Assembly (NCBI GenBank): GCA_963764165.1
Contig: CAVXRD010000001.1
Location: forward strand, 1,024,001 to 1,088,000
Origin: an uncultured Verrucomicrobiae bacterium
GTDB lineage: Bacteria > Verrucomicrobiota > Verrucomicrobiia > Limisphaerales > Palsa-1400
Length of the DNA stretch: 64,000 bases
Direction: 5' to 3'
Below the pieces are notes generated by a model that was not told the DNA's origin, ran no database searches, and saw only the letters and a program-made list of their open reading frames with translations. The position numbers and the translations under genes are program-made. This document shows, piece by piece, positions 46,350 through 63,831 of this stretch. Every line of letters starts with the position of its first letter. Position 1 is the first letter of the stretch.

Positions 46350-46426
46350 TGGTCGGAGCGACAGGATTTGAACCTGCGACGTCTTGGTCCCAAACCAAGT
46401 GCTCTACCAGGCTGAGCTACGCTCCG
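46350..46426 (-). tRNA. tRNA-Pro (TGG)
   Basis: CGGAGCGTAGCTCAGCCTGGTAGAGCACTTGGTTTGGGACCAAGACGTCGCAGGTTCAAATCCTGTCGCTCCGACCA; cloverleaf with encoded CCA. Confidence 0.97.
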
Positions 46427-46525
46427 ATTTGTTGATGTTCAAGCACTTGCACAACATTTCGCGGGTGCCACAAAGTAACTTGTAACCCGCACTTGTCACC
46501 CGGCAATTTTCTGCTATGTTGTTGT

Positions 46526-48016
46526 ATGAATGCAACAACGCATGAGAATGCCCAGACGAATGGGCATCCTGTCTTCCACAATGTGGGCGAAAATCTGTAC
46601 CGGCTCGAATCATCGGGAGGATACTACGCACTAATTAAGAAGGGGGGCAAGCAGTTTCGCCGCTCGCTCAAAACAAAGGACCGAAAGCTGGCGGAACGGA
46701 AGTTGAAGGAACTCAAAGAAAAAATGGGTGTGTTGCGCGTGACACAAGACCCGCACGGTGATTTCAATAGCATGGCCCATCGTTGGCTTGACTCACGTAT
46801 GCACAGGCTGGCGGAAAGCACGGCGGAGTGGTACGGATACCTCATCAAGAACCTCGCCGAGTTTTTTGGGGCGACTTCGATTCGGAACATCACCGCTGAC
46901 GATTGCGAGGGGTGGGCCAAAGCGCGAAGGGGCACCGCCGGCACCAAAGCCTTCGTCAGCGAACTCGACACAATGAACGCCGTTTTCCAATACGCCATTC
47001 GCCACGGGATCATTCTTACGAATCCCGCAGCCCACATTGAACGCCCCACGGTTCGCCAGCCAAAAATACAAGTTCCAAGTTTGGGCGAATTCCAAAAAAT
47101 CGTCGCAACGATTCGTCAGGCTGATGATCGCAAGGACAGCCAGAAGAAAACAAAAGCTGGCGCCGACCTCATTGAGATTCTCGCCTATTCCGGCGCTCGC
47201 GTCGCTGAAATCACCGGTGGAAGGAAAAAGAAAAATCCCTTAATTTGGTCGCATGTGAATTTTGAAAACAACACAGTTTATCTTCCGGGAACCAAGACAG
47301 AATCAAGCCCTCGCTGGATTCCGATGCCCCACGAACTGCGGGCGTTTTTGGAGAAATTGAAAGCGGAACAAAACCCTGAGCCGAGTGCCGCGCTCATCCC
47401 TATTTCCAGCGCGCGAAAGTGCTTGGAAACTGCCTGCCGCAAACTCGGTTTCCCTCAATACACGCACCACGACTTCAGGCACTTCTTTGCGACGACCTGT
47501 ATCGAATCCGGCGTGGACATTCCGACCATCAGCCGTTGGCTCGGACATTGTGACGGTGGCGCGTTGGCGATGAAACGATATGGGCATCTCCGCCAGGAAC
47601 ACAGCCTCGCCATGAGCAAACGCGTCAGCTTCGACAAACCTGCCAATGTTATCCCAATGCCGGAAACTGCGAACAAACACGCCCAGGCGCAAACATCTGC
47701 AACTCCTGACGGAAGACGCGTCGTAGCCAAAGCCAAAGCGAAATATGGCTATGCTTGGTGGGTGTCACAGAATCCGCTTGAAGTGTTTTGGGGGCAAATC
47801 CATGAAGAAGTCTGGCTTGTGCCGCTTGAAAGATTGCTTGAGGCCGCGAAACAGGCAATGGGCCGTGAAGTGTTCCGTCAGGAAATCAATGACCGGGATG
47901 CCCTTATTGATGAATTCGTGGAAAGAGTCCCCGAATCGTCGCTCAACGAAGTTCTTGCTAAAATTTCTGCCCGTGACGAAAGCGGCCACGGAAAGGACCG
48001 CGAAGCAACCAAATGA
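46526..48016 (+). CDS. Tyrosine integrase with C-terminal extension
   Basis: YSGARVAEI (R), GTKT (K), HDFRH (HxxR), WLGH, KRYGH (Y); N-terminal RRSLKTKDRKLA arm region. Confidence 0.93.
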   Translation: MNATTHENAQTNGHPVFHNVGENLYRLESSGGYYALIKKGGKQFRRSLKTKDRKLAERKLKELKEKMGVLRVTQDPHGDFNSMAHRWLDSRMHRLAESTAEWYGYLIKNLAEFFGATSIRNITADDCEGWAKARRGTAGTKAFVSELDTMNAVFQYAIRHGIILTNPAAHIERPTVRQPKIQVPSLGEFQKIVATIRQADDRKDSQKKTKAGADLIEILAYSGARVAEITGGRKKKNPLIWSHVNFENNTVYLPGTKTESSPRWIPMPHELRAFLEKLKAEQNPEPSAALIPISSARKCLETACRKLGFPQYTHHDFRHFFATTCIESGVDIPTISRWLGHCDGGALAMKRYGHLRQEHSLAMSKRVSFDKPANVIPMPETANKHAQAQTSATPDGRRVVAKAKAKYGYAWWVSQNPLEVFWGQIHEEVWLVPLERLLEAAKQAMGREVFRQEINDRDALIDEFVERVPESSLNEVLAKISARDESGHGKDREATK

Positions 48017-48038: not shown

Positions 48039-48287
48039 CTATGATGTCTCGCGCAAGAATCGGTCGAGATCATCTCTGGAATAGATTGGGTGGCGTAGTG
48101 CGCGGGAAGGATGGAGGAGGCCCCGCTTTGCCAATCGGTCAATCGTCACTGGGTTCACCCCCAAATACGTCGCGGCCTCGGCACGTTTGAATCCCTTTTT
48201 CTCGACAGAAACATTCGTTTCCGCGCCGTTGGTCTGACAATGGTGGGGGGCCTGTGGTTTAGTCAACTGTTCGTTTTGTTTGAGCAT
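48039..48287 (-). CDS. Excisionase-like helix-turn-helix protein
   Basis: AEAATYLGVNPVTIDRL..RGLL.P......YSRDDLDRFL; convergent with the integrase. Confidence 0.85.
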   Translation of the reverse strand: MLKQNEQLTKPQAPHHCQTNGAETNVSVEKKGFKRAEAATYLGVNPVTIDRLAKRGLLHPSRALRHPIYSRDDLDRFLRETS

Positions 48288-48640
48288 AAATCCTCCGATT
48301 TTTCAATCTCGATTGACTGAATCATGCCCTGCACGCCTTCCCACGCATCACCGTATTTTTCCGGCACCGGCATGACCCACTCGACGGCGCGTTCCTGAAA
48401 GCCAATGGCCAGAGAGCGCAGATTCCGGCCTGCAATCTTCACCTTATGATTGACGAACGAGAGCGCAATCGTGTCGCTTTCGTGGGCCGAGTCGAACTTG
48501 GCGACTTCCAAGTGGTGGTAAGGCAGCAGATAAAAACAAGTGGGCGTTACTTCCAACCGCAGGTTGTCCAGGGGGACGTGGTTGCCCATCACTTGACGGC
48601 TTAGGTGGTAACACTCTGGGCGTTCTTTGAATTCTCTCAT
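48263..48640 (-). CDS. Hypothetical protein translationally coupled to the relaxase
   Basis: 125-aa ORF overlapping the relaxase stop (4 nt) and the HTH start. Confidence 0.65.
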   Translation of the reverse strand: MREFKERPECYHLSRQVMGNHVPLDNLRLEVTPTCFYLLPYHHLEVAKFDSAHESDTIALSFVNHKVKIAGRNLRSLAIGFQERAVEWVMPVPEKYGDAWEGVQGMIQSIEIEKSEDLCSNKTNS

Positions 48641-51561
48641 ACTCCAATGCCTCCTCCATATCTTTGTTTGTGCTGATGACTGTGGGTGATTTTCCGCGCC
48701 GTCCGAATCGCTGGCGATTGCCGCACCAACTCCGATTGTTTCTGTGTTTCCGATTGCTGCGCCACCTCGAACACTTTAGCGGCTTCCGCCTGCCCAAATA
48801 ATTCAGCCCGGCGCTGCGCGGTTTGACGTTGTGAATGCTGGACGCTGAGGACGTAGCCAATATCACGGCCCCAAGCTTTCGCCAGCGCATGGATGGCGGA
48901 TTCTTTGACAATGTCCAAGGCCAATTCGCGGCCCCCGGAACGGACGACGTTTTGCCGAAGCTGGATTTTATCGGCGGTGAAAATCTGGACGCCCTTCCGT
49001 CCCCGCGAAATGGTCACATACCATTGCTGGTCGTTGGTTGCGGCCTGCACAGCGGAATCGGAGAACAGGACATAATCCACGGTTTTGCCCTGGGCGGCGT
49101 AGGACGTGACCGCGTAGCCGCGCACGAACTGGCGGTAGTACTTGCCCAACGTCCGGCCATCCGCCAGGGCGATGCGTCCATCCGGGTGAACGTGGTTGAC
49201 CGTGACCAGTTCGCCATTGACCACCTTGCTCCCGTCCGTGGCGTTGCCATTGGCCTTCAATTGCAGCCGGTCGCCGCTGGCCAAGGGCAATTCCTTGGGC
49301 TGGCAAACCGTGAGCCGGTCGAGGTCTTTGAAGGGAACCGGGCGTATGCGCTGGTTGGCCTCAATCAGCAGATGTTTGTCGGTGACGGCGAGCAAGCGGC
49401 CAGTGTCGCCGGGCTTGTAGCCACTGACGGGCCGGTTAAAGACCACTACGGAATCAGGAGCGTAAGATCGCGCATCCCGTTTTTGGGCATCCGTCAAATC
49501 CAGCCGTTCCAGCGCGGTCACGGTGATTTCCTCCTGACCGACCAGTCCTTGAGCTTTCAATCCGTGCCGCACCTGTTCATTGACCTTGTGGATCTCCGAC
49601 CAGCTTTGCGAAACGACCACAGTAGAGTGGCTTGCCTTCACCAGTTCCAAAAAGCGTTCTGCGAGCTTTTGCTGCTGGTTGGCAATGGTGCAGGCGACGA
49701 TGGCGTCCTGCTGGTCCAGGCGGTCAAAGGATTGAGCCAGCTTCCCGGCCTGCGCTTCGCCGACCGCCAGCCGGTATTGTTCCAGCCACTTCCGTTCCGC
49801 CTGAGTTTTCGCCTCGTCGGGATTCTGACGGCGAATGCTGGTCAATTCGGCATATTCCAACCCGGAGTATTTTTCGATTGCCCGGAGTGCGTCGGTAGCT
49901 TCCACGGCCCCGTGCTGGTGCGTGTCGCCGGAGAGAATCACCCGGCCCTCGTTTTCCCTCACCAGCCGGAGCAGTTCCAGCATTTGCTTGCCGCCGATCT
50001 GCCCGGCCTCGTCCACCATGACCACCGCGCCGCGAGGCAGCGAACCACGAGCCAGAAATGCGCTGAGTGTCCGTGCGCCGATGAACCCGTCCCGCTCCAA
50101 ATCCATCACTTGCTGGCGTTGTGGGGCGAGGACTTGGACTGTCTGGCCACTTCGCTTGAGCGCCAAATCAACCTCCCGGAGCGTGTAACTTTTGCCCGTG
50201 CCAGCCCCGCCGCGAAACAGGGTGACAAAATCCCGCGAGGTCAGGATGTGATTGACCGCCTGACGCTGCTCTTTGTCCAGGGCGGTGTTAAGCACGGGCG
50301 GACGAGCGCAAAGCGGCCTGTAACTGCGGATGCCATCTCGCGCCAAACAGACAATTTCCCATTCCCGGCCCAAGACCTCCCGCGTTGTCACCCTGCCAGG
50401 GGAAACTTCGTCCCGCACGTAGCCACGATCTTTTGTGACCGCCTGAATGTCAGCCAATGACACATCCCGCCCGCGAGCATGTTCGAGTGCATGACGCCAA
50501 AGTTCCTGCTCGCGGACGACGGAACGGCGGTCAAACAAGTGATCTTCCGCCCACGTCACGGTTTCGGCGGCGGTCATTTTTGGGGCATCAGGTTGCAATG
50601 GTGAGTTTCGATCAAGCCGGGTCAACTGAATGCGTTCGTCGGACGAAAGCTGCCCATTCCACAACGATTGCAGCCGGGCAATTCCCACGTCCTTGATCTT
50701 TCGCGCCCGTTCCTTGTGGGCGATATGATCCCGGATGGCGTTGATGTTGCGACCGGCCTTCTCCGGTTCTCTGGCCAGCAATTCCCGCGTTTTCCGGTCA
50801 ATCTCCTGATGCCGCTTGGAAAACCGCCCAATCAACTCCTGGGAGACGCCCCGAATTTCAAAATCCCCGCGCGGATTGTTCTCAATGCCGTAACCAAAAC
50901 GCACCAGCGCCTTGGTCAGTTCATCGTAATAGACCTGAATCGTGAATTTTTTGGCCATCAGCATTTCGCAAGTTTCCAATGCCTTCCAACGGTTCTCGAC
51001 TGAATCCCTCGTGGCATTGAACAGAATGCAATGGGTGTGCAAATGCGGGTCCAACTCTCTTGACGTATCATGCCGGAAAACTGCGCCAACCAGATTGCCG
51101 GTCAGACGATATGATGTCTCCCCCTGCTTCCGAACTCGTGTGGCCGCGTACATTTCCAGTTGCCGCATAGCCACCTGCACAGCCTCATCATGCGCTTCCA
51201 GAATTCGCCGGTCATCTCCCACCAACGCCGCAATGGACACCGATTTGGGCGGCGAAAATGTGAAATCATAGAACACCCGGCGATTGGCAACCTCATGTAA
51301 ATTGCCGTCCTTCCCTGCTTCCATCCGTGTTCCATTATGCCGTTGAGTCAATCGTTCGTCCGTACTTGGATTAAGGTTCCGGCACAGTTTCAGGAACTCA
51401 TCCGTATGCGTCACTCCTGCAAGCCCCAATGATACCGCGCCCTGTCCAATCCATTGTCCCATCACCCGACGACCTTCCATATAATAGTCGCCGACCTGCA
51501 AATGCTCATTAAAGTATTCCTCCGCATTCGACAAACTGTATTGGGCCTTCGTCGCCAGCAT
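48637..51561 (-). CDS. MOBF (TrwC/TraI-type) relaxase-helicase
   Basis: N-terminal Tyr (GDYY), YDFTFSPPKSVS, HDTSRELDPHLHTH (HUH), Walker A GGAGTGKS, VDEAG, YAVTSYAAQGKTVD, YVTISRGR. Confidence 0.95.
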   Translation of the reverse strand: MLATKAQYSLSNAEEYFNEHLQVGDYYMEGRRVMGQWIGQGAVSLGLAGVTHTDEFLKLCRNLNPSTDERLTQRHNGTRMEAGKDGNLHEVANRRVFYDFTFSPPKSVSIAALVGDDRRILEAHDEAVQVAMRQLEMYAATRVRKQGETSYRLTGNLVGAVFRHDTSRELDPHLHTHCILFNATRDSVENRWKALETCEMLMAKKFTIQVYYDELTKALVRFGYGIENNPRGDFEIRGVSQELIGRFSKRHQEIDRKTRELLAREPEKAGRNINAIRDHIAHKERARKIKDVGIARLQSLWNGQLSSDERIQLTRLDRNSPLQPDAPKMTAAETVTWAEDHLFDRRSVVREQELWRHALEHARGRDVSLADIQAVTKDRGYVRDEVSPGRVTTREVLGREWEIVCLARDGIRSYRPLCARPPVLNTALDKEQRQAVNHILTSRDFVTLFRGGAGTGKSYTLREVDLALKRSGQTVQVLAPQRQQVMDLERDGFIGARTLSAFLARGSLPRGAVVMVDEAGQIGGKQMLELLRLVRENEGRVILSGDTHQHGAVEATDALRAIEKYSGLEYAELTSIRRQNPDEAKTQAERKWLEQYRLAVGEAQAGKLAQSFDRLDQQDAIVACTIANQQQKLAERFLELVKASHSTVVVSQSWSEIHKVNEQVRHGLKAQGLVGQEEITVTALERLDLTDAQKRDARSYAPDSVVVFNRPVSGYKPGDTGRLLAVTDKHLLIEANQRIRPVPFKDLDRLTVCQPKELPLASGDRLQLKANGNATDGSKVVNGELVTVNHVHPDGRIALADGRTLGKYYRQFVRGYAVTSYAAQGKTVDYVLFSDSAVQAATNDQQWYVTISRGRKGVQIFTADKIQLRQNVVRSGGRELALDIVKESAIHALAKAWGRDIGYVLSVQHSQRQTAQRRAELFGQAEAAKVFEVAQQSETQKQSELVRQSPAIRTARKITHSHQHKQRYGGGIGV

Positions 51562-52114: not shown

Positions 52115-52852
52115 ATGAACAAAATGAAAAAACGACTCGTACTCATCCTCAATGGCAAAGGCGGCGTGGGCAAAAGCTTCTTTGCCGTGAACTTCATTCA
52201 ATACCTCAAGGACCGCGATATTGCCCACGCGGCCTTCGACAGCGACGACGAGAATTCGACCTTGAAACGCTTCCATTCGGAAGTCGGTTTCATTGACCCT
52301 AACACGCCAACGGACATGGACCGCATGGTGGAACCTTTGGAAGACAAAGATGTGGTGGTGGTGGATTGCCGCGCCGCTTCAACCCGCATTTTCCTCAAGT
52401 ATTTCGAGGAGACAGGGTTGCATACCATACTTGAAGGCATTGGCACTGCCCTGACCATCGCCAGCCCGGTCAATCATGAACTGGACAGTATTCACCAGCT
52501 TCAACGCCTCGTTGGCGGGATTGCCGGAAAGCCGGATTTCCTTATCGTTCGCAACGAAGTCCATGGCGAGGGCTTTGATTTGTTCGACAAATCGAAAATC
52601 CGCCAAAAGCTGTTGAATGACTTGGGCGCGCGCGAAATCCATGTGAAGCAGATGTATAAATGGCTGGTGGAAGGATTGCAGCGGAGCAAGGCCACACCCA
52701 CGCTCGCGCTGAAGGATTCAGACTTCACCATAATGGACCGCCAACGCCTGATCAATTGGCAGCGCCACTTTTATGAACAACTTGATTCGGTGAAAGATTT
52801 GCTTCTGCCTGCAACCGATGAGAAAGGAAAACCCGCCCATGCAGCCGCGTAA
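52115..52852 (+). CDS. ParA/MinD-like P-loop ATPase (StbB/TraL-like)
   Basis: Deviant Walker A NGKGGVGKS, FDSDDEN, VVVDC. Confidence 0.8.
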   Translation: MNKMKKRLVLILNGKGGVGKSFFAVNFIQYLKDRDIAHAAFDSDDENSTLKRFHSEVGFIDPNTPTDMDRMVEPLEDKDVVVVDCRAASTRIFLKYFEETGLHTILEGIGTALTIASPVNHELDSIHQLQRLVGGIAGKPDFLIVRNEVHGEGFDLFDKSKIRQKLLNDLGAREIHVKQMYKWLVEGLQRSKATPTLALKDSDFTIMDRQRLINWQRHFYEQLDSVKDLLLPATDEKGKPAHAAA

Positions 52853-53384: not shown

Positions 53385-54929
53385 ATGAGCAAGCTCCGAA
53401 TCTTTATCAGTTCCGTTCAAAAGGAATTGGAGAACGAACGCCTCGCCGTTCTGTCGCTCATTTCGACCGACGCATTTCTTCAAGTCCACTGCGAGCCAGT
53501 GCTCTACGAATTTGAGCCAGCTTCCCCAAAGGACGCCGCTCAAGAATGCCTCGCGCTCCTTAGCGGGTGCGAGATTTGTTTGACCATCATTTGGAAAGAA
53601 TATGGCCACGCCGTTGACGGCGTTTCCATCACGCGGCAGGAGTATCGCCTAGCGAGAAACAAGGGCCTGCCGGTGCTGGCGTTCATCAAGGGTGACGCAA
53701 CACTCCAGCGCGAGCCGGGAACAGCCGACTTTCTCAAGGAAATCGGCAAAGGCGGGCTAAAATACAAACGCTTTGGCAATTTGCTCGAATTGCTCCGGGA
53801 GGTCCGTGCTTCGCTGTTGAAAATCCTGAAGGAGCGGTTCGCCATTGAACCAACGTCCGACGAAAACGAAATCGCAGAGCAGACTATCACGGCAACATCC
53901 AATTTCGAGCTTCAGGCCCTCAAGCGTCTCCGCTGGGAAGACCTCGACCACGAAACCGCACGGCGGTTGGTTGCAAGCGCCGAACAAAAGGAAGCACGGG
54001 GCATTTCAGCAGAAGACCTGCTTCACGATCTGCTTGCGCGCGGCCTGGTCTGGAACGACCCGGAGACTGGCGGCCATTACCCCACCGCTGCGGGCATCGT
54101 TCTGCTGGCTCGCGATCCGTCTGTCGTTTTTCCACATTGCAGGATATTGGCCGACGCCTATCGCGGTATCGAGCCGGATGGAGATCCGTCCGACCACACA
54201 GATTTACGTGCCCCGATGCCGGTTGCCATCGAGCAAGCGATTGCCTTTGTCGAACGCAACACCCGACACCCCATCCGCATCGTTGGGCTTGATCGCGTCC
54301 GACTTGACGAATATCCCGCTGAGGCTTTGCGCGAAGCCTTGGTCAATGCTGTCGCTCATCGGGATTACGAGGACGGCTCCCGCAAAATCATGTTGGAAGT
54401 TTTTCCCGACCGAGTTGTCATTTCCAGTCCCGGACTGCCGCCGCCGCCAATCACATTACAAAAACTGCGGTCCAGGAAATATCGTCCGTGTTCCCGCAAC
54501 CCGATTCTCGCTCAGTGCCTCTCCTTCTTTCATCGCATTGAGGAACGCGGCAGTGGTTTCCGACGAATGCACGACCAGATGGTTGACCACGGGCTTGAAC
54601 AGCCACGACTCGCAACAGATACCGGCTATTTCCAAATCATTTTTGCAGGGCCTGGGAACAATTTGAGGCGGCTACGTGTTCCCGCCGGTCGTGCCAGGAA
54701 AACCGTGCCGCCATCGGTGGAGCAACAACTAACTGAGCGACAGAAGGAAATGGCTACGCTACTTGTGGCTGGGGAAGAATTGACCAGCCGTCAGTGTGAG
54801 GCCAAGTTTGGAATCACCCGTCCAATAACCTCCAAAGATTTTGCGGCTTTGGTTCGATTGGGTTTGGCAGAAAAAATCGGCTCCGGTCGCTCCACCCGAT
54901 ACCGGCTCAAATCCCCAAGTGAATCGTAA
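53385..54929 (+). CDS. DUF4062 + HATPase_c-like (RecG C-terminal-like) + winged-HTH protein
   Basis: RIFISSVQKELENER..G.SITRQEY (DUF4062); YPAEALREALVNAVAHRDY, ISSPG, RNP, IEERGSG; LTERQ...GSGRSTRY wHTH. Confidence 0.85.
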   Translation: MSKLRIFISSVQKELENERLAVLSLISTDAFLQVHCEPVLYEFEPASPKDAAQECLALLSGCEICLTIIWKEYGHAVDGVSITRQEYRLARNKGLPVLAFIKGDATLQREPGTADFLKEIGKGGLKYKRFGNLLELLREVRASLLKILKERFAIEPTSDENEIAEQTITATSNFELQALKRLRWEDLDHETARRLVASAEQKEARGISAEDLLHDLLARGLVWNDPETGGHYPTAAGIVLLARDPSVVFPHCRILADAYRGIEPDGDPSDHTDLRAPMPVAIEQAIAFVERNTRHPIRIVGLDRVRLDEYPAEALREALVNAVAHRDYEDGSRKIMLEVFPDRVVISSPGLPPPPITLQKLRSRKYRPCSRNPILAQCLSFFHRIEERGSGFRRMHDQMVDHGLEQPRLATDTGYFQIIFAGPGNNLRRLRVPAGRARKTVPPSVEQQLTERQKEMATLLVAGEELTSRQCEAKFGITRPITSKDFAALVRLGLAEKIGSGRSTRYRLKSPSES

Positions 54930-55634
54930 ACTAATCGTTAAGCATTTTTCGGTAATCGTAAAGTTGGCTCATGCAGGAACTCACAAGCCACCGTGCTCCG
55001 GCGACTGAAATGAGACGGCAGCAAATCGCCAAATAATCGTCAGGTGTTTTTCCAGAACCGTCAGATGGCTCCTACCCATATCCCGCCGGGGAGGTGCGCA
55101 CGATGTTTTCAAACGGAAATAAGACTTTTATGGGACTTTTGAACCAGAACCCTGTGGGCGGAAGGAGACAATATTGGGACATTGCATCTTGGAGCATCAG
55201 GGGATTGGACGCGGAGGCATCCACATCCTTCGGCGGAATCGTTTCATAAAATTGACAATCGTGCCATCGGCCACCGGCCACCCCGATAATTCCGCACAAT
55301 GGAGTTGGGCCGGTGCCAGGAAAAGCCCGTCCCAAACCCGCCAAACAGGTGTGGTTTAATCGTCAACGTATTTTCCAGAATCGTCAACTTGTCCTCTAAA
55401 GAAAGGGCTTGCCCCGCTCAGGCGCGCAAGTCCCACCGATTCTAAATCGAACGGGAGAAATTGCCCGCAATCGTCAGATAATCGTCAGGTATTTTCCCAG
55501 AATCGTCAGATGGCTTCTGCCCATATCCCGCCATGTGCCCAAATTCCATCCTGCCGGGCAGGAGCGAACTCGCTTGTCGCCGAAGGGTCGTTATGGATAA
55601 ACTCCCCTGCATTCAGAGATTTAAAATGACGATT
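54922..55634 (+). repeat. Array of phased AATCGT(CA) boxes
   Basis: Exact AATCGT at 54922, 54933, 54954, 55035, 55237, 55257, 55358, 55379, 55469, 55480, 55501; variants at 55024 and 55056; inverted copy at 55627-55634; ~64-bp imperfect direct repeat 55024-55087/55469-55532. Confidence 0.85.
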
Positions 55635-55881
55635 AACTAATTTTATAAAAATACATTTCGCGTAGCTTCGGCTGCTGTTCCCCTCGAAACCTAGGAAATT
55701 TCGCACGAAAGACAGCGCTTGATGCACGCCCCGCCTGGGGCGTGCTGAAAGCGTTCTTTCGTGGGCCCCCTAGGTGCCTGAGGAGAGACGTAAGTAAGTA
55801 CGTCCCTCTTTTATTTCAGTCACCAGGGTTCCCACAAAGGACAGTCAAAAACAGGGCTGATTCGCACGCGAGCGAACAGCC

Positions 55882-58800
55882 ATGCCCCGAATCTTCGACA
55901 ACATCGAAGCCGATTTGCTTCCCGCGCTGGCGCAAACACTTTGCGTCTCCGAACGGGCCGACTTTTGCGTCGGCTATTTCAATTTGCGCGGCTGGAAAGC
56001 CATAGATACCTTGATCGACCAATGGGTCGGAGGCGAAGGAGCACAATGCCGTCTCATCGTTGGTATGCAGCGACTCGCTCAGGACGAACTTCGCCAGGCG
56101 TACAGCCTTTTGCCGGAGGAGGAAGAAATCAGCCAAAAGGCGGTCATCCGCTTAAAACGCCGTCTTGCCGAGGAGTTCCGCGCTCAACTCACGTTTGGCG
56201 CACCCACCGACGCGGACGAAGCCGGACTTCGCCGTCTCTCCGCCCAACTCAAAGCGGGCAAAGTGGTGGTAAAATTATTTCTCCGCCACACGCTTCACGC
56301 CAAGCTATACCTTTGCTTTCGCCCCGACCCCAACAATCCCATCACTGGCTTTCTCGGTTCCAGCAATCTCACACTTTCGGGCCTGTCCCATCAAGGCGAA
56401 TTGAACGTGGACGTGCTTGACCAGGACGCCACCGATAAACTTGCTAAATGGTTTAAGGATCGGTGGGATGATCGTTGGTGCGTGGACATCACCCAGGAAC
56501 TGATTCAGGTGATTGACGAGAGTTGGGCGCGGCCAGAATGTCCGCCGCCCTATCAGATTTATGTCAAAATGGCCTACCATTTGGCCGAAGAAGCCCGCGC
56601 CGGCCTGTCAGAATTTTCCATCCCCTCGGACATGCGTGGCACCTTGCTGGAATTTCAATCCGCCGCCGTCCGCATCGCCGCCCGCCATTTGGAAAAACGC
56701 GGCGGCGTCATTCTTGGCGACGTTGTTGGCCTTGGCAAAACCCTCATGGCTACCGCGCTGGCCCGCGTTTTTCAAGACCCGCCGCGCTCTCTCGAAACCC
56801 TCATTCTCTGCCCCAAAAATCTTGTCGGCATGTGGAAGGACTACGCCCACCGCTACCGCTTGATCGCCGAGGTTGTCTCCGTCACTCAGGCGCAAAACAG
56901 TCTCCCCGATCTTCGCCGTTACCGCGTTGTCATCATTGACGAAAGCCACAATTTGCGAAATCGCGAGGGCCGACGCTGGGCCGCTGTCCGCGATTATCTG
57001 GCCCGCAACGCCAGCAAAGTCATTCTTCTTTCCGCCACGCCCTACAACAAAGCCTACCTTGATCTCGCCAACCAACTTCGTCTGTTTATCAATCCAGACG
57101 ATGCAGTCGGCATCCGGCCCGAAGAATACTTGCGGCGTGATTGCGACGGACGGCCCGACGAATTTACCCGCCGCCATCAGTGTGCCGTCAATTGCCTTTC
57201 CGCCTTCGAGAAAAGCGGCCATGCCGACGACTGGCGTGAGTTAATGCGCTTGTTCATGGTCCGCCGCACTCGCAGCTTTGTCGAACGCAACTACGCCTTC
57301 ACCGAATGTCCCAAGTGTTTCACCGTCCTCTTGCCCACTCAGGAAAAGTGTCCCAAGTGCGACCGCGCCAAGGTGAAGGAGGACCGCCGCTTTCTCATCC
57401 TTGAAGGCGGCAGCCGTTTCCATTTCCCCAAACGCCAGCCCAAGACTCTGGCGTTCAAGATTCGCGACAGCGACCAGGCCGACCAATACGCCCGGCTTTA
57501 TTCCGATAAAGTGGTGGACACCGTGCGGATGTTGCACCTTCCACGCTACGGCCTCGCCAATTATTTAAAGCCCACCCTCGACGTGCCGCCGTCCCAGGAC
57601 GAAGCCGAAATGATGGACAACCTCTCCCGCGCTGGCAAACGGCTCATCGGTTTTTGCCGCACCAACCTTTTCAAGCGGCTGGAAAGCAGCGGCCATGCCT
57701 TCCTGCTTTCCGTCCGCCGCCACATTCTGCGCAATTATATTTTTCTGCACGCACTGGAGAAAGGTTTACACCTGCCCATCGGCACCCAGGATTCTGCGCT
57801 GTTCGACACCCGCACCGAAGATCACGACAGCGATAGCAATATGTTTGGCGCGGACGATGCCGCCGCCGCCAAGCCAACCGAAATCACCGCCCAAAACCTC
57901 GCCGAGTTCGCCCAAGCCGGAGCCGCAGGCTATCAAACGCTAAAAACCGACCACGCCCGCAATTTCGATTGGTTGCGCTCCGATGTTTTTGTCGAAGACC
58001 TTTCCCAGCACCTTCAGCAGGACGCCCAGCGGCTTTTCTCCATCCTTGAACTCGCTGGCCAATGGCAACCAGATCAGGATAATAAACTGGCCGAACTCCA
58101 TAAACTTCTGACCAAAAAACATCCCAGCCAGAAAATTCTCATCTTCTCCCAATTCGCCGATACCGTCTCCTACCTTGCCGAGCAGTTGCAGGAACGCGGA
58201 ATTAAGCACATGGCGGGCGTCACCGGCGACACCGAATCGCCATCCAACTATGCCCGCCGTTTCAGTCCCGAAAGCAACAAGGCGCGGGACAAAGGCTCGC
58301 CCCACTACGTTTCGCCCGCTGAAGAACTCCGCGTGTTGGTCGCCACCGATGTTCTCAGCGAGGGCCAAAACCTCCAGGACGCCGCCATCGTTGTGAACTT
58401 CGATTTGCCATGGGCCATCATTCGCCTCATCCAGCGGGCCGGTCGCGTGGACCGTATCGGCCAAAAGGCGGAGGAAATTCTCTGCTACTCCTTTGTCCCC
58501 GCCGAAGGCGTCGAACGCCTCATCCGTCTGCGTATGCGCGTCCGCCAGCGCCTCCAGGAAAACGCCGAAGTCGTTGGCACCGATGAAACCTTTTTCGAGG
58601 ACGAAAAACACGACACTGTCATCCGCGACCTTTTCACCGAGAAATCCGGCGTCCTGGACGACCCGACGGACGACGAAGTGGATCTTGCCTCACTGGCCTA
58701 CCAGATTTGGAAAAACGCTTGTGACACCGATCCGACATTGAAAAAAATCATCCCCGATCTGCCAGGCGTTGTCTTTTCCACCAAAGCCCTGTCCGCCATT

Positions 58801-59364
58801 CCCGCCAAACCCGCCGCCGCCTCTGGCCCCCAGCCCGTCCCCGGCGTCATGGTTTACGTCCGCACCGCCGACGGCAACGATGCGCTCGCTTGGGCGGACG
58901 ATGAAGGCCGCACCGTCACCGAAAGCCAGCACGAAATCTTGCGTGCCGCCGCGTGCGAACCGGCCACCCCGGCGCTCCCGCGCCTAATCAATCACCATCC
59001 GCTCGTCCAAAAAGCCGTCAGCACCATCCAAACCGAACACATCACCACCGGCGGCCAGCTTGGCAAACCTTCCAGCGCCCGCCGCCGGGTCTATGAGCGG
59101 CTTAAAGATTATGCCGCCCAGGTCAAAGACAGCCTGTTTGACATCAAACCGCTTCATCAGGCCATTGATGAAATTTACGAGGCCCCGCTCACCGAATCCG
59201 CCCGCGATCTCCTTAACCGCGAACTCCGCACTGGCGTCAGCGATGAAAAACTTTTTGAACTCGTCCTTTCGCTCCATGAGGAAGACCGGCTTTGCATCCC
59301 GAAAGACGATGCCGAAGCCCGCGAACCCAAAATCATTTGCTCCCTTGGCATCCGTAAAGATTAA
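55882..59364 (+). CDS. PLD-family nuclease domain fused to an SNF2-type SF2 helicase
   Basis: VGYF, LHAKLY...GSSNLT..GL..QGELN (PLD); GDVVGLGKT, IIDESH, LSATP, IFSQFADT, TDVLSEGQNLQ, QRAGRVDRIG; CPKC-x10-CPKC insertion. Confidence 0.9.
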   Translation: MPRIFDNIEADLLPALAQTLCVSERADFCVGYFNLRGWKAIDTLIDQWVGGEGAQCRLIVGMQRLAQDELRQAYSLLPEEEEISQKAVIRLKRRLAEEFRAQLTFGAPTDADEAGLRRLSAQLKAGKVVVKLFLRHTLHAKLYLCFRPDPNNPITGFLGSSNLTLSGLSHQGELNVDVLDQDATDKLAKWFKDRWDDRWCVDITQELIQVIDESWARPECPPPYQIYVKMAYHLAEEARAGLSEFSIPSDMRGTLLEFQSAAVRIAARHLEKRGGVILGDVVGLGKTLMATALARVFQDPPRSLETLILCPKNLVGMWKDYAHRYRLIAEVVSVTQAQNSLPDLRRYRVVIIDESHNLRNREGRRWAAVRDYLARNASKVILLSATPYNKAYLDLANQLRLFINPDDAVGIRPEEYLRRDCDGRPDEFTRRHQCAVNCLSAFEKSGHADDWRELMRLFMVRRTRSFVERNYAFTECPKCFTVLLPTQEKCPKCDRAKVKEDRRFLILEGGSRFHFPKRQPKTLAFKIRDSDQADQYARLYSDKVVDTVRMLHLPRYGLANYLKPTLDVPPSQDEAEMMDNLSRAGKRLIGFCRTNLFKRLESSGHAFLLSVRRHILRNYIFLHALEKGLHLPIGTQDSALFDTRTEDHDSDSNMFGADDAAAAKPTEITAQNLAEFAQAGAAGYQTLKTDHARNFDWLRSDVFVEDLSQHLQQDAQRLFSILELAGQWQPDQDNKLAELHKLLTKKHPSQKILIFSQFADTVSYLAEQLQERGIKHMAGVTGDTESPSNYARRFSPESNKARDKGSPHYVSPAEELRVLVATDVLSEGQNLQDAAIVVNFDLPWAIIRLIQRAGRVDRIGQKAEEILCYSFVPAEGVERLIRLRMRVRQRLQENAEVVGTDETFFEDEKHDTVIRDLFTEKSGVLDDPTDDEVDLASLAYQIWKNACDTDPTLKKIIPDLPGVVFSTKALSAIPAKPAAASGPQPVPGVMVYVRTADGNDALAWADDEGRTVTESQHEILRAAACEPATPALPRLINHHPLVQKAVSTIQTEHITTGGQLGKPSSARRRVYERLKDYAAQVKDSLFDIKPLHQAIDEIYEAPLTESARDLLNRELRTGVSDEKLFELVLSLHEEDRLCIPKDDAEAREPKIICSLGIRKD

Positions 59365-59367
59365 CCT

Positions 59368-62300
59368 ATGCCCCTCGACTTCCAACGCGCCCGCCCCCTC
59401 CTGCAAAACGGGAATCTCAGCAAGTTGTTTGTCGAGGAACTCGGCTGGGAACCCTGTCGTCAAAAACTCACGCTCCGGGCCGGTGAAACTGATTACGCTT
59501 TTACTGCCATCGCCGAAAAACGCGGCTTCACCGCCTGGCTATGCGCCAACGCCGACGGTAAATTGCCAGACCACACCACGCGGTTGAAACTTGACCGCGC
59601 CCTGACTCAGACCAGCTTTGAACATCTCATCGTTTTTCCCACCCGCGACGGCACCCAGCAATCGTGGATGTGGGTGCGCCGCAAAACAGGCAAGCCGCTC
59701 GCCGCCCGCACCCATGAGTTCAATCGCACGCAGCCCGGCGACTCGCTGCTCCAGAAGCTCCAGCACCTCTATATTTCACTCGAAGACGAAGAACGGGGCG
59801 ATGTTCATACCCTCACTCTTTCCGCCGGAGCACAGGCCGCGTTCGACATCGAGCGCGTCACAAAAAAATTCTACAAGGACTTCGATGCGCACCGCATCGC
59901 GTTCCTTAAATTCATTGACGGCATCGGCGAAGTGGCCGACCGCGAATGGTATGCCTCCGTCATGCTGAATCGCCTGATGTTCGTCTATTTCATCCAGCGC
60001 AAGGGCTTCCTCGATGGCGACCACGATTACCTTCGCAACCGTTTGGACCGTTGCAAAAGGGAACAGGGCAAAGACCAGTTCTACACCTTCTACCGTTATT
60101 TCTTGCTCCGGTTGTTCCGTGAAGGCTTCGGCAAACGCCGCAAGGACCGCGCACCTGACCTTGAAAAACTCATCGGCAACATCCCGTATCTCAATGGTGG
60201 CTTGTTCGACGTGCATGAGCTTGAGAAGCCGGAACGCTACGGCAAGGTCATCCAGATTCCCGACAAAGCTTTCGAGCGCATCTTTAATTATTTTGATCAA
60301 TACCAATGGCACTTGGATGAGCGCCCGCTCCGCGACGACAACGAGATCAATCCCGATGTTCTTGGCTACATCTTCGAGAAATACATCAACCAGAAACAAA
60401 TGGGAGCCTATTACAGCAAGGAGGACATCACCGAATACATCAGCAAAAATACCGTACTGCCTTTCCTCTTTGACGCCGCCCGCGCCAAGTGCAAGGTGGC
60501 TTTTGAAAATCCCAACGGCCCAACCGTCTGGGATTTGTTGCGCGAAAATCCTGATCGCTTCATTTATCCCGCCGTGCGCCATGGTACCGATAAAAAACTT
60601 CCGCCGGAAATCGCCGCCGGACTCGATACCACCAAGCCAAACCTGATCGAACGCCGCAAAGTGTGGAATAGACCCGCGCCCAGCGACTACGCCTTGCCTA
60701 CCGAAATCTGGCGTGAAGTCGTCGCCCGCCGACAGCGTTACGGGGAAGTCAGGCAGAAACTCGCCACCGGCCAAGTCCTGGAAGTGAACGACTTCATCAC
60801 CCTGAATCTTGATCTCCGCCAGTTCGCGCAGGATGTCATCCAGAATTGCGAAGGCCCGGATTTACTCATGGCCCTGTGGCAGCCCATCACCACCATCACC
60901 GTCCTTGACCCTACTGGCGGATCAGGCGCGTTCATCTTTGCCGCCCTCAATATACTTGAACCCCTTTACGAAGCCTGTCTGGACCGCATGGAGGCGTTTC
61001 TGGCGGAGTGGGGTGAGAACGGCAAAAAGACCCATCCAAATTATCACAAAAAATTTACCGAAGTCCTCGCCCGCGTTGACGCGCACCCCAACCGGCGCTA
61101 CTTCGTCCTCAAATCCATCATCATCAATAATCTCTACGCCGTGGACATCATGGAAGAGGCGGTGGAAATCTGCAAACTGCGCCTGTTCCTCAAGCTCGCC
61201 GCTCAGGTCGAGCCGGACGTTGGACGCGATAACCTCGGCATCGAACCGCTCCCGGACATTGACTTCAACATCCGCGCCGGCAACACACTCGTCGGTTATG
61301 CCACGGCGCAGGAAGTGCGCAAGTGCCTCACCTCGGAGAAGACGTCCGGCCACGACCAAATGCGCCTTGGTGTGCTGGGGGAAAAAGACGCCTACGCCAC
61401 CTTCGAGGACAAACTACAGATCGCCGACGCGGCATATCGCAGCTTCCGTCAGCAGCAGACCGAACTCGGTGGCATCGTCACGGCCCAGGATAAAGCCGAC
61501 TTAAAAACCAAACTCAAGACACTCGAAGACGAATTAAACTGCTATCTGGCGCGCGAATATGGTGTCAAAGTGAGCGACAAGCCCGCTTACTCCAACTGGC
61601 TGAAGTCCCACCAGCCGTTCCACTGGTTCATCCAGTTCTACAGCATTATCGCTCGCGGCGGCTTCGATGTCACCATCGGCAACCCACCGTACGTCGAATA
61701 CGGCACGAAGTTACAAAGCCAGTACCAGGTCAGGAACTACGCAACGCTGTCATGCGGCAACCTCCACGCTTTTTGCGCCGAAAGGAGCCTCTCGTTGACC
61801 TCACCGTCTGGTTGCGTCGGCCTCATTGTTCCACTCCCGTCCATCAACACAGATCGAATGGCTGCGCTACAGTCGCTCGTGAAACCAAACACGGGGGCCA
61901 AGGGAAGAAGTCTCTGGGTGTCCGCTTTCGACGAGCGTCCAAGCAATCTATTCAGCGGCGTGGACCAAAGACTGGTCATCGAGATCTTCGGTGCGGAAGC
62001 GCAACCACCCACCCTCGCCACAACTGGGATAAATCGGTGGGCCTCCAAGACCCGCGACAATCTCTTCCCGACCATCGCCTACTCACTTCAAGACAACGAG
62101 TCCATAGGCCGAACACGTACCATCCTCAAACTCAAGAACGTAGCCATCGAAACCTCCCTTCTCAGGAAACTCTACTCAAATGACCCCATCGAACACTTCC
62201 GCTCCACGCTGCCCACCAAGAACCTAGTCGCATACCGCACAGCAGGTGGAAGATACTGGAAAGTCGCACTGGACACTCCCTTCGACTCTGAGGCTGTTAG

Positions 62301-62718
62301 CGGCAAGGTGGCATATCTACAGGGTATTTCTGGCAGACAAGCTGTTGCCCTAATCAGCAGCTCCACGTTCTGGTGGTACTACTCCTCCCACTTCGACATG
62401 TACAACCTCAAGGACTACATGATATTTGGTTTTCGATTCTCAAGCGCCTCCCAAAGCATCCTCGCCGACCTGGACAAGATTGCTGGGAAACTCGTGAAAT
62501 CCATCGAACATAACGCGGAGGTTCAAACAATGCAGTCGCAAACCCGCGGGGCCGTTGAGCAGAAGATATATAAAGCCGGTAAGTCCAAGCCCATAATCGA
62601 CGAAATCGACACAGTGCTTGCGGAGCACTATGGGTTCACAGAGGAGGAATTGGACTTCATCGTGAATTACGACATCAAATACCGCCTTGGCCGCGACACC
62701 GAAACCGAGGAGGAGTGA
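59368..62718 (+). CDS. Large N6-adenine DNA methyltransferase (Eco57I/type IIG-like) with target-recognition region
   Basis: IPYLNGGLF, LGYIFEK, GAYYS, LDPTGGSGAF (motif I), GNTLVG, GFDVTIGNPPY (motif IV), IDEID...YGFTEEE C-terminus. Confidence 0.92.
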   Translation: MPLDFQRARPLLQNGNLSKLFVEELGWEPCRQKLTLRAGETDYAFTAIAEKRGFTAWLCANADGKLPDHTTRLKLDRALTQTSFEHLIVFPTRDGTQQSWMWVRRKTGKPLAARTHEFNRTQPGDSLLQKLQHLYISLEDEERGDVHTLTLSAGAQAAFDIERVTKKFYKDFDAHRIAFLKFIDGIGEVADREWYASVMLNRLMFVYFIQRKGFLDGDHDYLRNRLDRCKREQGKDQFYTFYRYFLLRLFREGFGKRRKDRAPDLEKLIGNIPYLNGGLFDVHELEKPERYGKVIQIPDKAFERIFNYFDQYQWHLDERPLRDDNEINPDVLGYIFEKYINQKQMGAYYSKEDITEYISKNTVLPFLFDAARAKCKVAFENPNGPTVWDLLRENPDRFIYPAVRHGTDKKLPPEIAAGLDTTKPNLIERRKVWNRPAPSDYALPTEIWREVVARRQRYGEVRQKLATGQVLEVNDFITLNLDLRQFAQDVIQNCEGPDLLMALWQPITTITVLDPTGGSGAFIFAALNILEPLYEACLDRMEAFLAEWGENGKKTHPNYHKKFTEVLARVDAHPNRRYFVLKSIIINNLYAVDIMEEAVEICKLRLFLKLAAQVEPDVGRDNLGIEPLPDIDFNIRAGNTLVGYATAQEVRKCLTSEKTSGHDQMRLGVLGEKDAYATFEDKLQIADAAYRSFRQQQTELGGIVTAQDKADLKTKLKTLEDELNCYLAREYGVKVSDKPAYSNWLKSHQPFHWFIQFYSIIARGGFDVTIGNPPYVEYGTKLQSQYQVRNYATLSCGNLHAFCAERSLSLTSPSGCVGLIVPLPSINTDRMAALQSLVKPNTGAKGRSLWVSAFDERPSNLFSGVDQRLVIEIFGAEAQPPTLATTGINRWASKTRDNLFPTIAYSLQDNESIGRTRTILKLKNVAIETSLLRKLYSNDPIEHFRSTLPTKNLVAYRTAGGRYWKVALDTPFDSEAVSGKVAYLQGISGRQAVALISSSTFWWYYSSHFDMYNLKDYMIFGFRFSSASQSILADLDKIAGKLVKSIEHNAEVQTMQSQTRGAVEQKIYKAGKSKPIIDEIDTVLAEHYGFTEEELDFIVNYDIKYRLGRDTETEEE

Positions 62719-63260
62719 TCGGAATCACCATGACCCCAACGGTCCTCCATGCCAGCAGCCCGCTTTACCCGGCGCGTTTGCGCGGGAAGCTGGGCGATGA
62801 TGCTCCACCGCAACTGTCTGCCTTTGGAAATCTGGATTTGCTCGCCCTGCCCAAAACCGCGCTGTTCTGTTCCGCCCGCTGCCCCGGCAAAGCCATCCTC
62901 ACCACCTACGACCAAGCTGCCCGGTGGCGCGACTTTGGCCGCTGCGTCATCAGCGGTTTTCATTCGCCGGTGGAAAAGGAGTGTCTCAGCATCCTTTTGC
63001 GCGGAAGCCAGCCGGTCATTATCTGTCCGGCCCGCAGTCTTGAGAACATGCGCCTTCCTCCCGACTGGAAGCAGCCGCTCTCCGACGGTCGGCTCTTGAT
63101 TCTCTCCTGTTTCGTCGAACGCAACCGCCGTGTTACCGCAAGTCTCGCCGTCCGCCGAAACGAGTTCGTCGCCGCTCTGGCGGATGAAGTCTGGTTTGCT
63201 CACATCGCACCCGGCGGCGAAATGCAATGCCTGGCTCATAAAATTGCTGCGCAAGATTGA
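62715..63260 (+). CDS. Short DprA/SLOG-like protein
   Basis: YPARL...GNLDLL, ALFCS, VISGFHSPVEK, RRN...ALAD; overlaps the MTase stop (GTGA). Confidence 0.8.
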   Translation: MIGITMTPTVLHASSPLYPARLRGKLGDDAPPQLSAFGNLDLLALPKTALFCSARCPGKAILTTYDQAARWRDFGRCVISGFHSPVEKECLSILLRGSQPVIICPARSLENMRLPPDWKQPLSDGRLLILSCFVERNRRVTASLAVRRNEFVAALADEVWFAHIAPGGEMQCLAHKIAAQD

Positions 63261-63270
63261 TTTGACTGTC

Positions 63271-63831
63271 ATGCAGATCATTCGCGCAGTGCCGGTGAGC
63301 GCCGATGATTACGTGGGCACAAGCTTCCATCAGGGTGTCGAGCCGCCATGTAAGTGCCCTCACTGTGACACGACGAATGCCCTCAAGGCGTTGGGGTATT
63401 ATTCCCGAAATGTCACCAGTCCAAAACGTGGCGTTCTGCGCATTTGTGTGCGGAGGTTTCGATGTTGTGAATGCGGTAAAACGGTCAGCATCCTTCCCTC
63501 ATTCGTCCAACCCTATCGGTTGGTTTTAAATCTCACAATAAACGAGTATTTTGGCGGAACACTCAACACCAACGCACTTTCATGGCTACCGCTTTTGAAA
63601 CGGTCCTGGAATCGCTTTTCAAACTGGCATCCACGGATTGACCGCATCATCAGGTCCGTCGTCTCGCGCTCGCCGCCTCATTCGGACGCTTCTGGATGGT
63701 GGAAGGTCATGGCCGCAACTTTGGGCGACCTTGAAAAAATTACAACGGTGCTTGTGGACCGATTTGGCGTCACCCTGTTCGGTCGCTATCGTTGCCACTC
63801 GCCGTTCTCCAACGGCCCGCCACCGAACTGA
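63271..63831 (+). CDS. DUF6431-like zinc-ribbon protein
   Basis: CPHC.....GYYSR.......RRFRCCECGKTVSILPSFVQPY. Confidence 0.7.
   Translation: MQIIRAVPVSADDYVGTSFHQGVEPPCKCPHCDTTNALKALGYYSRNVTSPKRGVLRICVRRFRCCECGKTVSILPSFVQPYRLVLNLTINEYFGGTLNTNALSWLPLLKRSWNRFSNWHPRIDRIIRSVVSRSPPHSDASGWWKVMAATLGDLEKITTVLVDRFGVTLFGRYRCHSPFSNGPPPN

Follow-up and report, generated by a model that had tools for sequence, protein, structure and literature searches.

A phospholipase D–SNF2 helicase and an adenine methyltransferase, often linked to a DprA-like gene, form a candidate restriction-like module on a mobile defence island

MANTIS (formerly Gao_RL), a type-2 DUF499-centred and BREX-related system with the components MtsA–D, is defined with DUF499 (PMC12839542). 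Nucleases of the phospholipase D (PLD) family with a single motif need to dimerise, which is established for BfiI and, according to a preprint, was shown for MANTIS MtsD (bioRxiv 10.64898/2026.09.23.753747). Type II restriction–modification (R-M) genes beside PLD–SNF genes with inversions of the target-recognition domain (TRD) are listed in PMC9881135, CP083813.1 among them; the two-gene architecture was seen there in passing, in genes that may belong to the family described here. Here we describe a module from an uncultured Verrucomicrobiae bacterium, located within a 64,000-nucleotide stretch of its genome (hereafter the window; contig CAVXRD010000001.1, positions 1,024,001 to 1,088,000) and consisting of a PLD–SNF2 helicase, an N6-adenine methyltransferase (MTase) and a small DprA-like protein. 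The best explanation of the module, with a probability of about 0.68, is that the first two genes make up an ATP-dependent R-M system and that the linked DprA-like gene limits self-damage. We found the restriction-like module to be widespread, its genes recurring across many bacterial phyla, and came across no system-level description: the literature searched, a scope that left aside REBASE, DefenseFinder, subscription journals and bioRxiv supplements, nowhere treats the two or three genes together as a system, nor do the passages considered of 10.64898/2025.12.08.692795 and PMC12707154 describe the module. For the MTase alone PADLOC already has a type IIG model, and its Synechocystis orthologue has been the subject of a study.

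The first gene (55882..59364, + strand, 1160 aa) encodes a PLD nuclease with a single HxK motif, an SNF2-type superfamily 2 (SF2) ATPase and a C-terminal domain without a Pfam family. After a spacing of 3 nt (TAA-CCT-ATG) follows the second gene (59368..62718, + strand, 1116 aa), which with the first makes up the core of the module, a type IIG/PglX-like N6-adenine MTase, and then the third (62730..63260, + strand, 176 aa), a stand-alone DprA/ShosA-like Rossmann (SLOG) domain. Pfam recognised PLDc_2/NgoFVII-N, SNF2 and Helicase_C in the first protein and an Eco57I MTase in the second, while the third matched DNA_processg_A with an E value of 1e-6, slightly below the family cut-off. The motifs HAK, DVVGLGKT, DESH, QRAGRVDR, DPxxGSG and NPPY were all found in the window proteins and are near-invariant among homologues; the three genes are real and intact, and the copy is a minimal one, free of cargo. 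A preliminary description of the locus, made from its sequence, had all three genes tightly coupled, with a GTGA overlap between the second and third. The 3-nt gap stands and the overlap exists if the third gene starts at GTG 62715 (open reading frame [ORF] 62715–63260, + strand), but ATG 62730, 11 nt past the MTase stop, is the likelier start, because the eight best homologues, all of 176 aa, span the whole ATG-start (MTP) query end to end and a Shine–Dalgarno-like GGAG-TGATC lies 9 nt ahead of it.

Our alignment of the first protein holds 47 full-length sequences, 43 from genome loci, 3 from plasmids and that of the window. It shows no variation at K141, E173, the Walker A motif (DVVGLGKT), D353-E354-H356 or the arginines of motif VI; H139 is kept in 46 of the 47, and the fusion of PLD and SNF2 that had been pointed out for the window is found in every one. 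Each protein has one HxK motif, and the position of the canonical HKD aspartate is mostly F. No defence profile in PADLOC or among the defence families spans the entire protein: the best PADLOC score was 149 bits, covering part of the motor only, and the matches to NF042964 (155.7 bits, cut-off 1100) and to the DrmD model NF038317 (123.6 bits, cut-off 610, motor region only) remained below threshold. The last 260 residues are conserved and belong to no named family; the protein atlas returned for this domain unnamed clusters and, as a lead only, a 22% match to RapA_C, and the region has matches in no fewer than 4,605 clusters (90% identity). A sequence search of the PDB with the helicase gave generic SF2 motors only. 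We also noted a CxxC...CxxC zinc-ribbon insert in the motor (residues 475–493, ~57304–57360) in 27 of the 47 homologues.

For the MTase, 98 sequences were aligned (the window and 97 near-full-length ones of 150 representatives), and D514, G518-S519-G520 and N772-P773-P774 are invariant in all. The predicted structure (pLDDT, the predicted score in the local distance difference test, 91) superposes from residue 163 onwards on MmeI (Z score 18.8) and on the MTase–TRD part of the type ISP enzyme LlaGI (Z 20.4); BREX PglX/BrxX was the best Foldseek match of modelled residues 163–1116 (E 1.9e-15; Z 19.3, root-mean-square deviation [rmsd] 4.5, 620 aligned), and CamA scored highest for the predicted catalytic core. 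Searching the PDB by sequence revealed no useful relative of the MTase and nothing for its N-terminal profile. The PADLOC model REase_MTase_IIG (PDLC03628) matches residues 9–1112 with 1051 bits, and existing tools would therefore label the locus type IIG from this gene alone. A second MTase subtype pairs with the same helicase in four loci (L185, L193, L194 and L202) and in plasmid hits H7–H11; it lacks an insert of ~130 residues (profile positions 373–499) and has an unrelated C-terminal part.

The MTase N-terminal domain (residues 1–162; 59368..59853, + strand) is modelled as an alpha/beta domain and is probably a restriction-endonuclease fold that has lost its catalytic activity and serves for docking, an assignment based on the resemblance to MmeI_N in the atlas (score 0.86, a lead only), the predicted secondary structure and our reading of the motifs; the whole-protein fold search hardly probed these residues. 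The preliminary description had seen no PD-(D/E)xK motif here, and this holds for the family: neither the 98 nor a set of 32 aligned N-termini contain an invariant D/E-D/E-x-K set. The best-conserved charged positions are E85 (86/98), K51 (82/98) and R72 (82/98), and among the 32 sequences F21, G26, W27, H86, W100, Q129, L131 and E141 are invariant. Pfam offered no credible family for the 32 N-termini.

The two large genes are strictly paired in our data. Among 62 MTase-seeded genome loci, the helicase lies upstream of the MTase in all 49 that contain the MTase start and at least 600 nt of upstream sequence, and the pair is also found on cyanobacterial, actinobacterial and Pelobacter plasmids. 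A fourth large conserved gene is not seen in the 62 loci, whose 117 flanking ORFs of at least 330 aa fall into 113 clusters. This pairing and the intact motifs agree with the earlier proposal of an ATP-dependent restriction-like unit in which the MTase would mark or read self DNA and the PLD-helicase would cut, and we consider it probable, judging by the sequences, that the two genes form one such unit. Where the sequence continues downstream for at least 7 kb, 21 of 28 loci have the DprA-like gene there; with a limit of 1 kb the count is 31 of 46. In the reverse direction, 17 of 18 metagenome loci seeded with this gene and reaching at least 6 kb upstream hold the helicase or the MTase on the same strand, 62 of the 80 loci being too short for the count; in a phylum sample seeded likewise, the numbers were 10/17 and, for the close clade, 9/12, with some matches being C-terminal MTase fragments only. 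Co-occurrence of the SLOG gene had been suggested as a check, and a hand comparison of two match lists for a phylum sample of 400 genomes placed its clade in 18 of the 23 helicase-positive and 10 of the 377 helicase-negative genomes, kin not being independent. The linkage of the three genes is far above chance.

The third gene adjoins the MTase in only 7 of 35 loci, and in the other 28 a gap of 0.3–5.7 kb separates the two. The gaps contain DarTG, GmrSD-HNH, DUF3644, DUF488, YhcG, AAA_21/OLD-like ATPases, peptidase U49, dynamin-PLD, DUF3800 and other genes, DUF3644 being the commonest passenger (7 loci). The space between the second and third genes serves as a slot in which unrelated defence genes are carried as cargo; in the window copy it is empty. 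The obligatory core consists of the helicase and the MTase, and the DprA-like gene is a frequent but dispensable linked accessory; of the three-gene system first put forward, the conserved linkage of the third gene has survived and its obligatory membership has not. Two copies are rearranged, one with the DprA-like gene directly upstream of the helicase (L197, G250:C30) and one with it directly behind a 190-aa N-terminal helicase fragment (L112).

In 18 three-gene loci the mean identity is 28% in the TRD (~residues 780–1060; 61705..62547, + strand) and 74% in the helicase, and TRD divergence is uncorrelated with that of the rest of the module (rho −0.20 to 0.06), whereas the divergences of the helicase, MTase N-terminus, MTase core and DprA-like protein intercorrelate at 0.60–0.83. 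The window TRD is 88/81% identical to that of one locus (L037), though the helicases of the two are only 50% identical, and shares 20–37% identity with the TRDs of loci whose helicases are 88–89% identical to its own. As judged from these alignments, the hypervariable TRD is swapped between lineages. The helicase C-terminal domain, on the other hand, co-varies with the MTase N-terminus (rho 0.80), and a complex prediction with MTase residues 1–325 and helicase residues 894–1160 gave weak support for their contact with a score of 0.32, against 0.01 for the best of three controls, with runs sharing at least 54% of contacts and a partner pLDDT of at least 57. Of 157 solved complexes, 116 attained the mark used for such predictions, as did 2 of 215 mismatched pairs; only 18 of the 157, but both of the mismatches, did so with a score of 0.60 or under. 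We give the modelled docking geometry about an even chance of being right.

We infer a mechanism of four steps. The MTase would methylate a single adenine, in only one of the strands of a short asymmetric site, of ~6 bp if the GAm6AGGC tentatively assigned to the Synechocystis orthologue slr6050 is a guide. At an unmethylated site it would provide the specificity for restriction, its probably dead endonuclease-like N-terminus docking the C-terminal domain of the PLD–SNF2 protein. This protein may then dimerise, a single HxK motif amounting to half of an active site, move along double-stranded DNA with ATP and cut, probably with a preference for DNA between two unmethylated sites in head-to-head orientation, as has been proposed for MtsD of MANTIS. 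In the last and weakest step, to which we assign somewhat less than even odds, the DprA-like protein would bind single-stranded DNA (ssDNA) or DNA ends and shield self DNA or help in its repair, for example upon entry of the island into an unmethylated host or a change of the recognition domain.

The alternative that survives best concerns this last step and holds the DprA-like gene to be a hitch-hiker of R-M operons with no mechanistic role, the system consisting of the two large genes. Many copies lack the gene, and on a helicase tree of 72 rows (47 with, 12 without and 13 of unknown state), biased by loci seeded with the third gene, the label changes at least seven times. The wider family of at least 2851 clusters includes five loci in which its domain is fused behind Y1_Tnp, four-helix IVP or DUF3293 domains (L201 11681–12688; L206 12119–13135; L192 12360–13523; L004 7308–8210; L048 14224–15201), and two of these distant fusions (L201 and L206) sit inside type I R-M operons, on account of which the family looks R-M-associated in general; other passengers, DUF3644, ORF6N, Bro-N and DUF1016, occur likewise. 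A mere hitch-hiker is harder to reconcile with a gene that remains the distal boundary while the cargo turns over, that occurs across most of the helicase tree with a divergence tracking that of the helicase (rho 0.66, Mantel p 0.001; kin not independent), that shows the strong reverse link of the metagenome loci and whose surface residues are strongly conserved. We regard the hitch-hiker explanation as unlikely, and prefer that the gene has a part in the R-M system.

A second alternative takes the pair as mainly a selfish addiction module, acting by post-segregational killing, or as a module for the exclusion of plasmids or islands. Its attraction comes from the mobility of the module, common on plasmids and present here on a mobilizable island, and from Synechocystis PCC 6803. 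There, the MTase slr6050 (M.Ssp6803IV) on plasmid pSYSX is 46% identical to the window MTase over its full length, and upstream of it we found an intact orthologue of the first gene (SGL_RS01585; 49% identical), with a VapBC-like pair in between and no DprA-like gene on the plasmid. The original study assigns it tentatively, by elimination, to GAm6AGGC, reports that no recombinant activity or expression was obtained, notes a weak HSDR_N similarity and states that its deletion would not segregate (PMC6105098). The word "helicase" occurs zero times in that article, where slr6050 is described only as an MTase. The deletion removed a ClaI fragment covering codons 386–696, with the loss of motif I, and its failure to segregate fits a lethal partner nuclease without proving one. 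TRD swapping and the defence cargo point instead to an arms race with invaders, and addiction and defence are not mutually exclusive; we find it improbable that addiction or exclusion is the main function. Downstream of the Synechocystis pair, a ThiF/E2/multiubiquitin/HTH/IrrE cassette (L063, 12793–16469; HTH, helix-turn-helix) resembles one in the window's island and is possibly a recurrent neighbour.

The nature of the third protein bears on a further alternative. Its predicted structure (pLDDT 94.6) is closest to ShosA (Z 21.1, rmsd 2.4, 172 aligned), followed by DprA (Z 14.5–18.3), and far from the LOG, MCP and ThsA SLOG domains (Z 6.3–9.1); by these models the product is a truncated DprA/ShosA-type fold and not a LOG/ThsA sensor fold. 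The best profile match was the antitoxin PsyrA (E 5.7e-20), and the score against the DprA model TIGR00732 was 15.5 bits (threshold 191). The protein covers residues 93–267 of 308 in ShosA and 70–241 of 283 in SpDprA, and has GFHSPVE where DprA has GARGID. R50 is conserved in 51 of 58 sequences and R143/N144 in all 58; by alignment offset, and so approximately, R50 and R143 lie near R139 and R234, which bind ssDNA in ShosA according to PMC12961424. A canonical DprA of the host's own is encoded separately, like its RecA, on another contig; a profile comparison of the third protein with the host DprA was not significant, the relationship being visible by fold only, and a PDB sequence search with its profile returned nothing. 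The preliminary description had proposed a sensor of ssDNA or nucleotides or an accessory. The accessory role agrees with our results, while the nucleotide-sensor role is unlikely because the modelled fold is far closer to DprA/ShosA than to LOG/ThsA, and ssDNA binding is the likelier activity.

The kinship with ShosA and PsyrA, the best fold and profile matches and both antitoxins, and the ssDNA sensitivity of ShosA–RecA binding, as given in PMC12961424, invite an explanation akin to PsyrTA/ShosTA abortive infection, with the third protein being a sensor or antitoxin that restrains the nuclease until phage ssDNA or host shut-off. Systems with intact nuclease motifs exist without the gene, as in Synechocystis, which an obligatory antitoxin would forbid; we found no phosphoribosyltransferase (PRTase) toxin in the island or among the cargo and recurrent flanking genes, and the modelled fold is far from the nucleotide-sensing ones. 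The probability of such a restraining role is low. That the gene limits self-damage to host DNA is instead suggested, tentatively, by analogy: by binding ssDNA and RecA, ShosA works against damage to self DNA (PMC12961424; also PMC11961720), and H. pylori DprA blocks restriction endonucleases from DNA and stimulates MTases (PMC3597690).

The weakest alternative, that the MTase is a stand-alone type IIG enzyme cutting with its own N-terminus and the PLD-helicase a separate, co-located and modification-dependent nuclease of the SauUSI-like type IV kind, can appeal to the full-length REase_MTase_IIG match, to the MmeI_N resemblance, to the weak HSDR_N similarity noted in PMC6105098, and to the autonomous action of PLD-helicases such as SauUSI (bioRxiv 10.64898/2026.09.23.753747), and is very improbable given an MTase N-terminus without an invariant acidic/lysine catalytic set, an MTase never seen without the helicase where testable, the co-variation of the two proposed docking domains and a helicase in which a Pfam domain scan detected no SRA-type reader domain.

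Several observations count against an R-M pair with a self-protecting accessory. The DprA-like gene is missing from 7 of the 28 loci with at least 7 kb downstream, and of ten negative cases searched with its profile throughout the genome or record, all of unstated completeness, eight had none, one had a weak 372-aa match and one (L057) had the gene ~15 kb downstream. No plasmid copy of it was detected, whereas a near-complete helicase is present in 22 plasmid records: querying the whole plasmid set gave one distant DprA only, and no DprA-like gene is annotated in seven plasmid loci that we viewed. The protein is without the sterile alpha motif (SAM) domain of DprA and stops ~40 residues short of the end of the DprA/ShosA core; ShosA dimer stability depends on the C-terminal helix, as PMC12961424 reports, and RecA loading may therefore not be kept. 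The slr6050 motif was assigned by elimination only, and a polar or a plasmid-copy effect may explain why the deletion did not segregate. Nor does this failure sit well with recruitment that depends strictly on the MTase, under which a cell should tolerate losing the MTase unless the 385 N-terminal residues left behind wrongly activate the nuclease. In the score band of the docking prediction, false passes outnumber true ones unless the pairing was already probable before the prediction. The MANTIS analogy is itself a model, since MtsD cleavage in vitro and its interaction with MtsA–C in size-exclusion chromatography were not seen, according to the preprint (bioRxiv 10.64898/2026.09.23.753747). 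Finally, restriction, cleavage and phage protection by any member of the family are predictions made from genes and models.

The module sits in a mobile defence island, and its mobilizable nature, recognised from the outset, is borne out by the genes at the left end: the integration site in a tRNA-Pro(TGG) gene (46350..46426, − strand), a tyrosine integrase (46493..48016, + strand), an excisionase-like HTH_17 protein (48039..48287, − strand), a MobF/TrwC relaxase-helicase (48637..51561, − strand; NF041492 above cut-off) and a TraL-like/ParA-type ATPase of the mobilisation module (52115..52852, + strand; PRK13886, under cut-off). The island spans 32.8 kb from the tRNA to an imperfect 45-bp repeat of it outside the window and has a GC content of 53.7%, compared with 56.0% and 58.5% in the flanks. 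The closest relatives of the helicase are mostly from Verrucomicrobiota. The continuation of the island (L207, G000:C1:1087983–1103276) contains a pair of serine recombinases and two ParB/RepB genes, a cassette of multiubiquitin, a 193-aa gene and ThiF adjoining an IrrE peptidase, an SbcB-like exonuclease, and a Qat-like cassette of QatA and QatC homologues with a 269-aa gene between, in which no TatD gene was seen.

Upstream of the module, the region 55000–55640 contains a near-duplicated stretch (~55031–55090 and ~55479–55533; 'aatcgtcagg...cagatggct...cccatatcccgcc') and several AATCGTCA motifs, which may be an origin of transfer (oriT) or a regulatory repeat. Further upstream, 53385–54929 encodes a protein with DUF4062, an ATP-binding HATPase_c_4 domain and an HTH, which has a 47% identical paralogue on contig C4; we rejected it as part of the module, there being one weak match beside homologous modules. 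The DUF6431 zinc-ribbon gene directly downstream of the third gene (63271–63831) was rejected likewise, as it is near the module in just 2 of 65 loci (L030 and L040). Large ORFs beyond the island include 16397–21670 (1757 aa) and 38922–42233 (1103 aa, with BACON/NHL-like repeats judged by eye).

If the proposed R-M system is real, a large family now automatically annotated as "type IIG" and "helicase-related protein" is a minimal MANTIS/BREX-like system and, being made of two genes without an AAA+ loader, offers a simpler setting for studying the coupling of site recognition to a motor-nuclease in hemimethylating systems. The apparent essentiality of slr6050 would be explained, loss of the helicase should make it dispensable, and the system may matter for transforming Synechocystis PCC 6803. 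An R-M-dedicated DprA paralogue would be relevant to the old question of how a hemimethylating system can settle in a naive host without suicide, and the cargo slot offers a fixed address for mining new defence genes. A wider interpretation, which we consider doubtful, would make the module an unnamed, phylum-spanning class of ATP-dependent R-M, a loader-free two-subunit machine in which the dead nuclease domain of a type IIG enzyme has become the dock for a PLD–SNF2 motor-nuclease, with the gap before the third gene as a hotspot for mining defence genes and the first R-M-dedicated DprA paralogue, which would serve as a built-in restriction alleviation, allow host entry and specificity swaps, and ride in type I operons.

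Compared with known systems, the module shares with MANTIS the fusion of a single-motif PLD nuclease, at the N-terminus, with an SF2/SNF2 motor and the pairing of this motor-nuclease with an adenine MTase, which in MANTIS hemimethylates asymmetric 6-bp sites and for which the only counterpart here is the tentative slr6050 motif. It differs in the lack of a linked DUF499 AAA+ loader (MtsA) and DUF3780 (MtsB), in a helicase scoring far below the NF042964 cut-off despite the shared architecture, in the additional DprA-like gene and cargo slot, and in an Eco57I/PglX-like MTase with a likely dead endonuclease-like N-terminus, the MANTIS MTase presumably being of the DUF1156 type. The sole DUF499 gene of the genome is on contig C2 in a helicase–MTase locus of its own, and none is conserved beside homologues of the window module; that locus (G000:C2:2376163–2387357) is a second, unrelated set of SNF2 helicase, MTase and DUF499 of the BREX-related/MANTIS type. 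The MTase family, as captured by PDLC03628, and the upstream helicase-nuclease are common to the window module and M.Ssp6803IV/slr6050, which differs in its TRD, the inserted VapBC-like pair and the absence of the third gene from its plasmid. Type ISP (LlaGI, LlaBIII) and type III enzymes likewise combine a nuclease, an SF2 motor, an m6A MTase and a TRD and act on asymmetric sites. The functions of type ISP are split here, and in homologous loci, into two polypeptides at the motor/MTase boundary, PLD replaces the Mrr/PD-(D/E)xK nuclease and the motor is of SNF2 type; a gamma-class MTase is also unlike the type III Mod. BREX type 1 PglX/BrxX resembles the MTase best in fold, and the window protein has the extra 162-residue N-terminal domain and no linked BrxC/BrxL; neither PglZ (PF08665) in the genome nor a conserved flanking ATPase was found. 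A type IIG enzyme has the same gamma-class m6A MTase and TRD in one large polypeptide, and the present family appears by sequence to have no active PD-(D/E)xK set. ShosA, PsyrA and DprA share the Rossmann core and the likely ssDNA-binding arginines of the third protein, which differs in its missing SAM domain and C-terminus and in having no PRTase toxin beside it. DISARM class I, the model of the preliminary description, also has an SNF2 helicase followed by a large m6A MTase, and a PLD nuclease. The absence of DrmA and DrmB reported for the window is upheld, DrmB (PF09369) not being found in the 97%-complete genome and no large flanking gene being conserved in the 62 loci; moreover, the DrmD and DrmMI matches are partial and sub-threshold, and PLD is fused to SNF2, whereas DrmC is separate. 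Membership in DISARM, BREX, MANTIS or type ISP, a stand-alone type IIG enzyme and a LOG-type sensor were rejected on missing partners, architecture or fold. By analogy, the module's mode of action is likely that of MANTIS or of type III/ISP restriction, minus the AAA+ loader, and these are closer models for it than DISARM.

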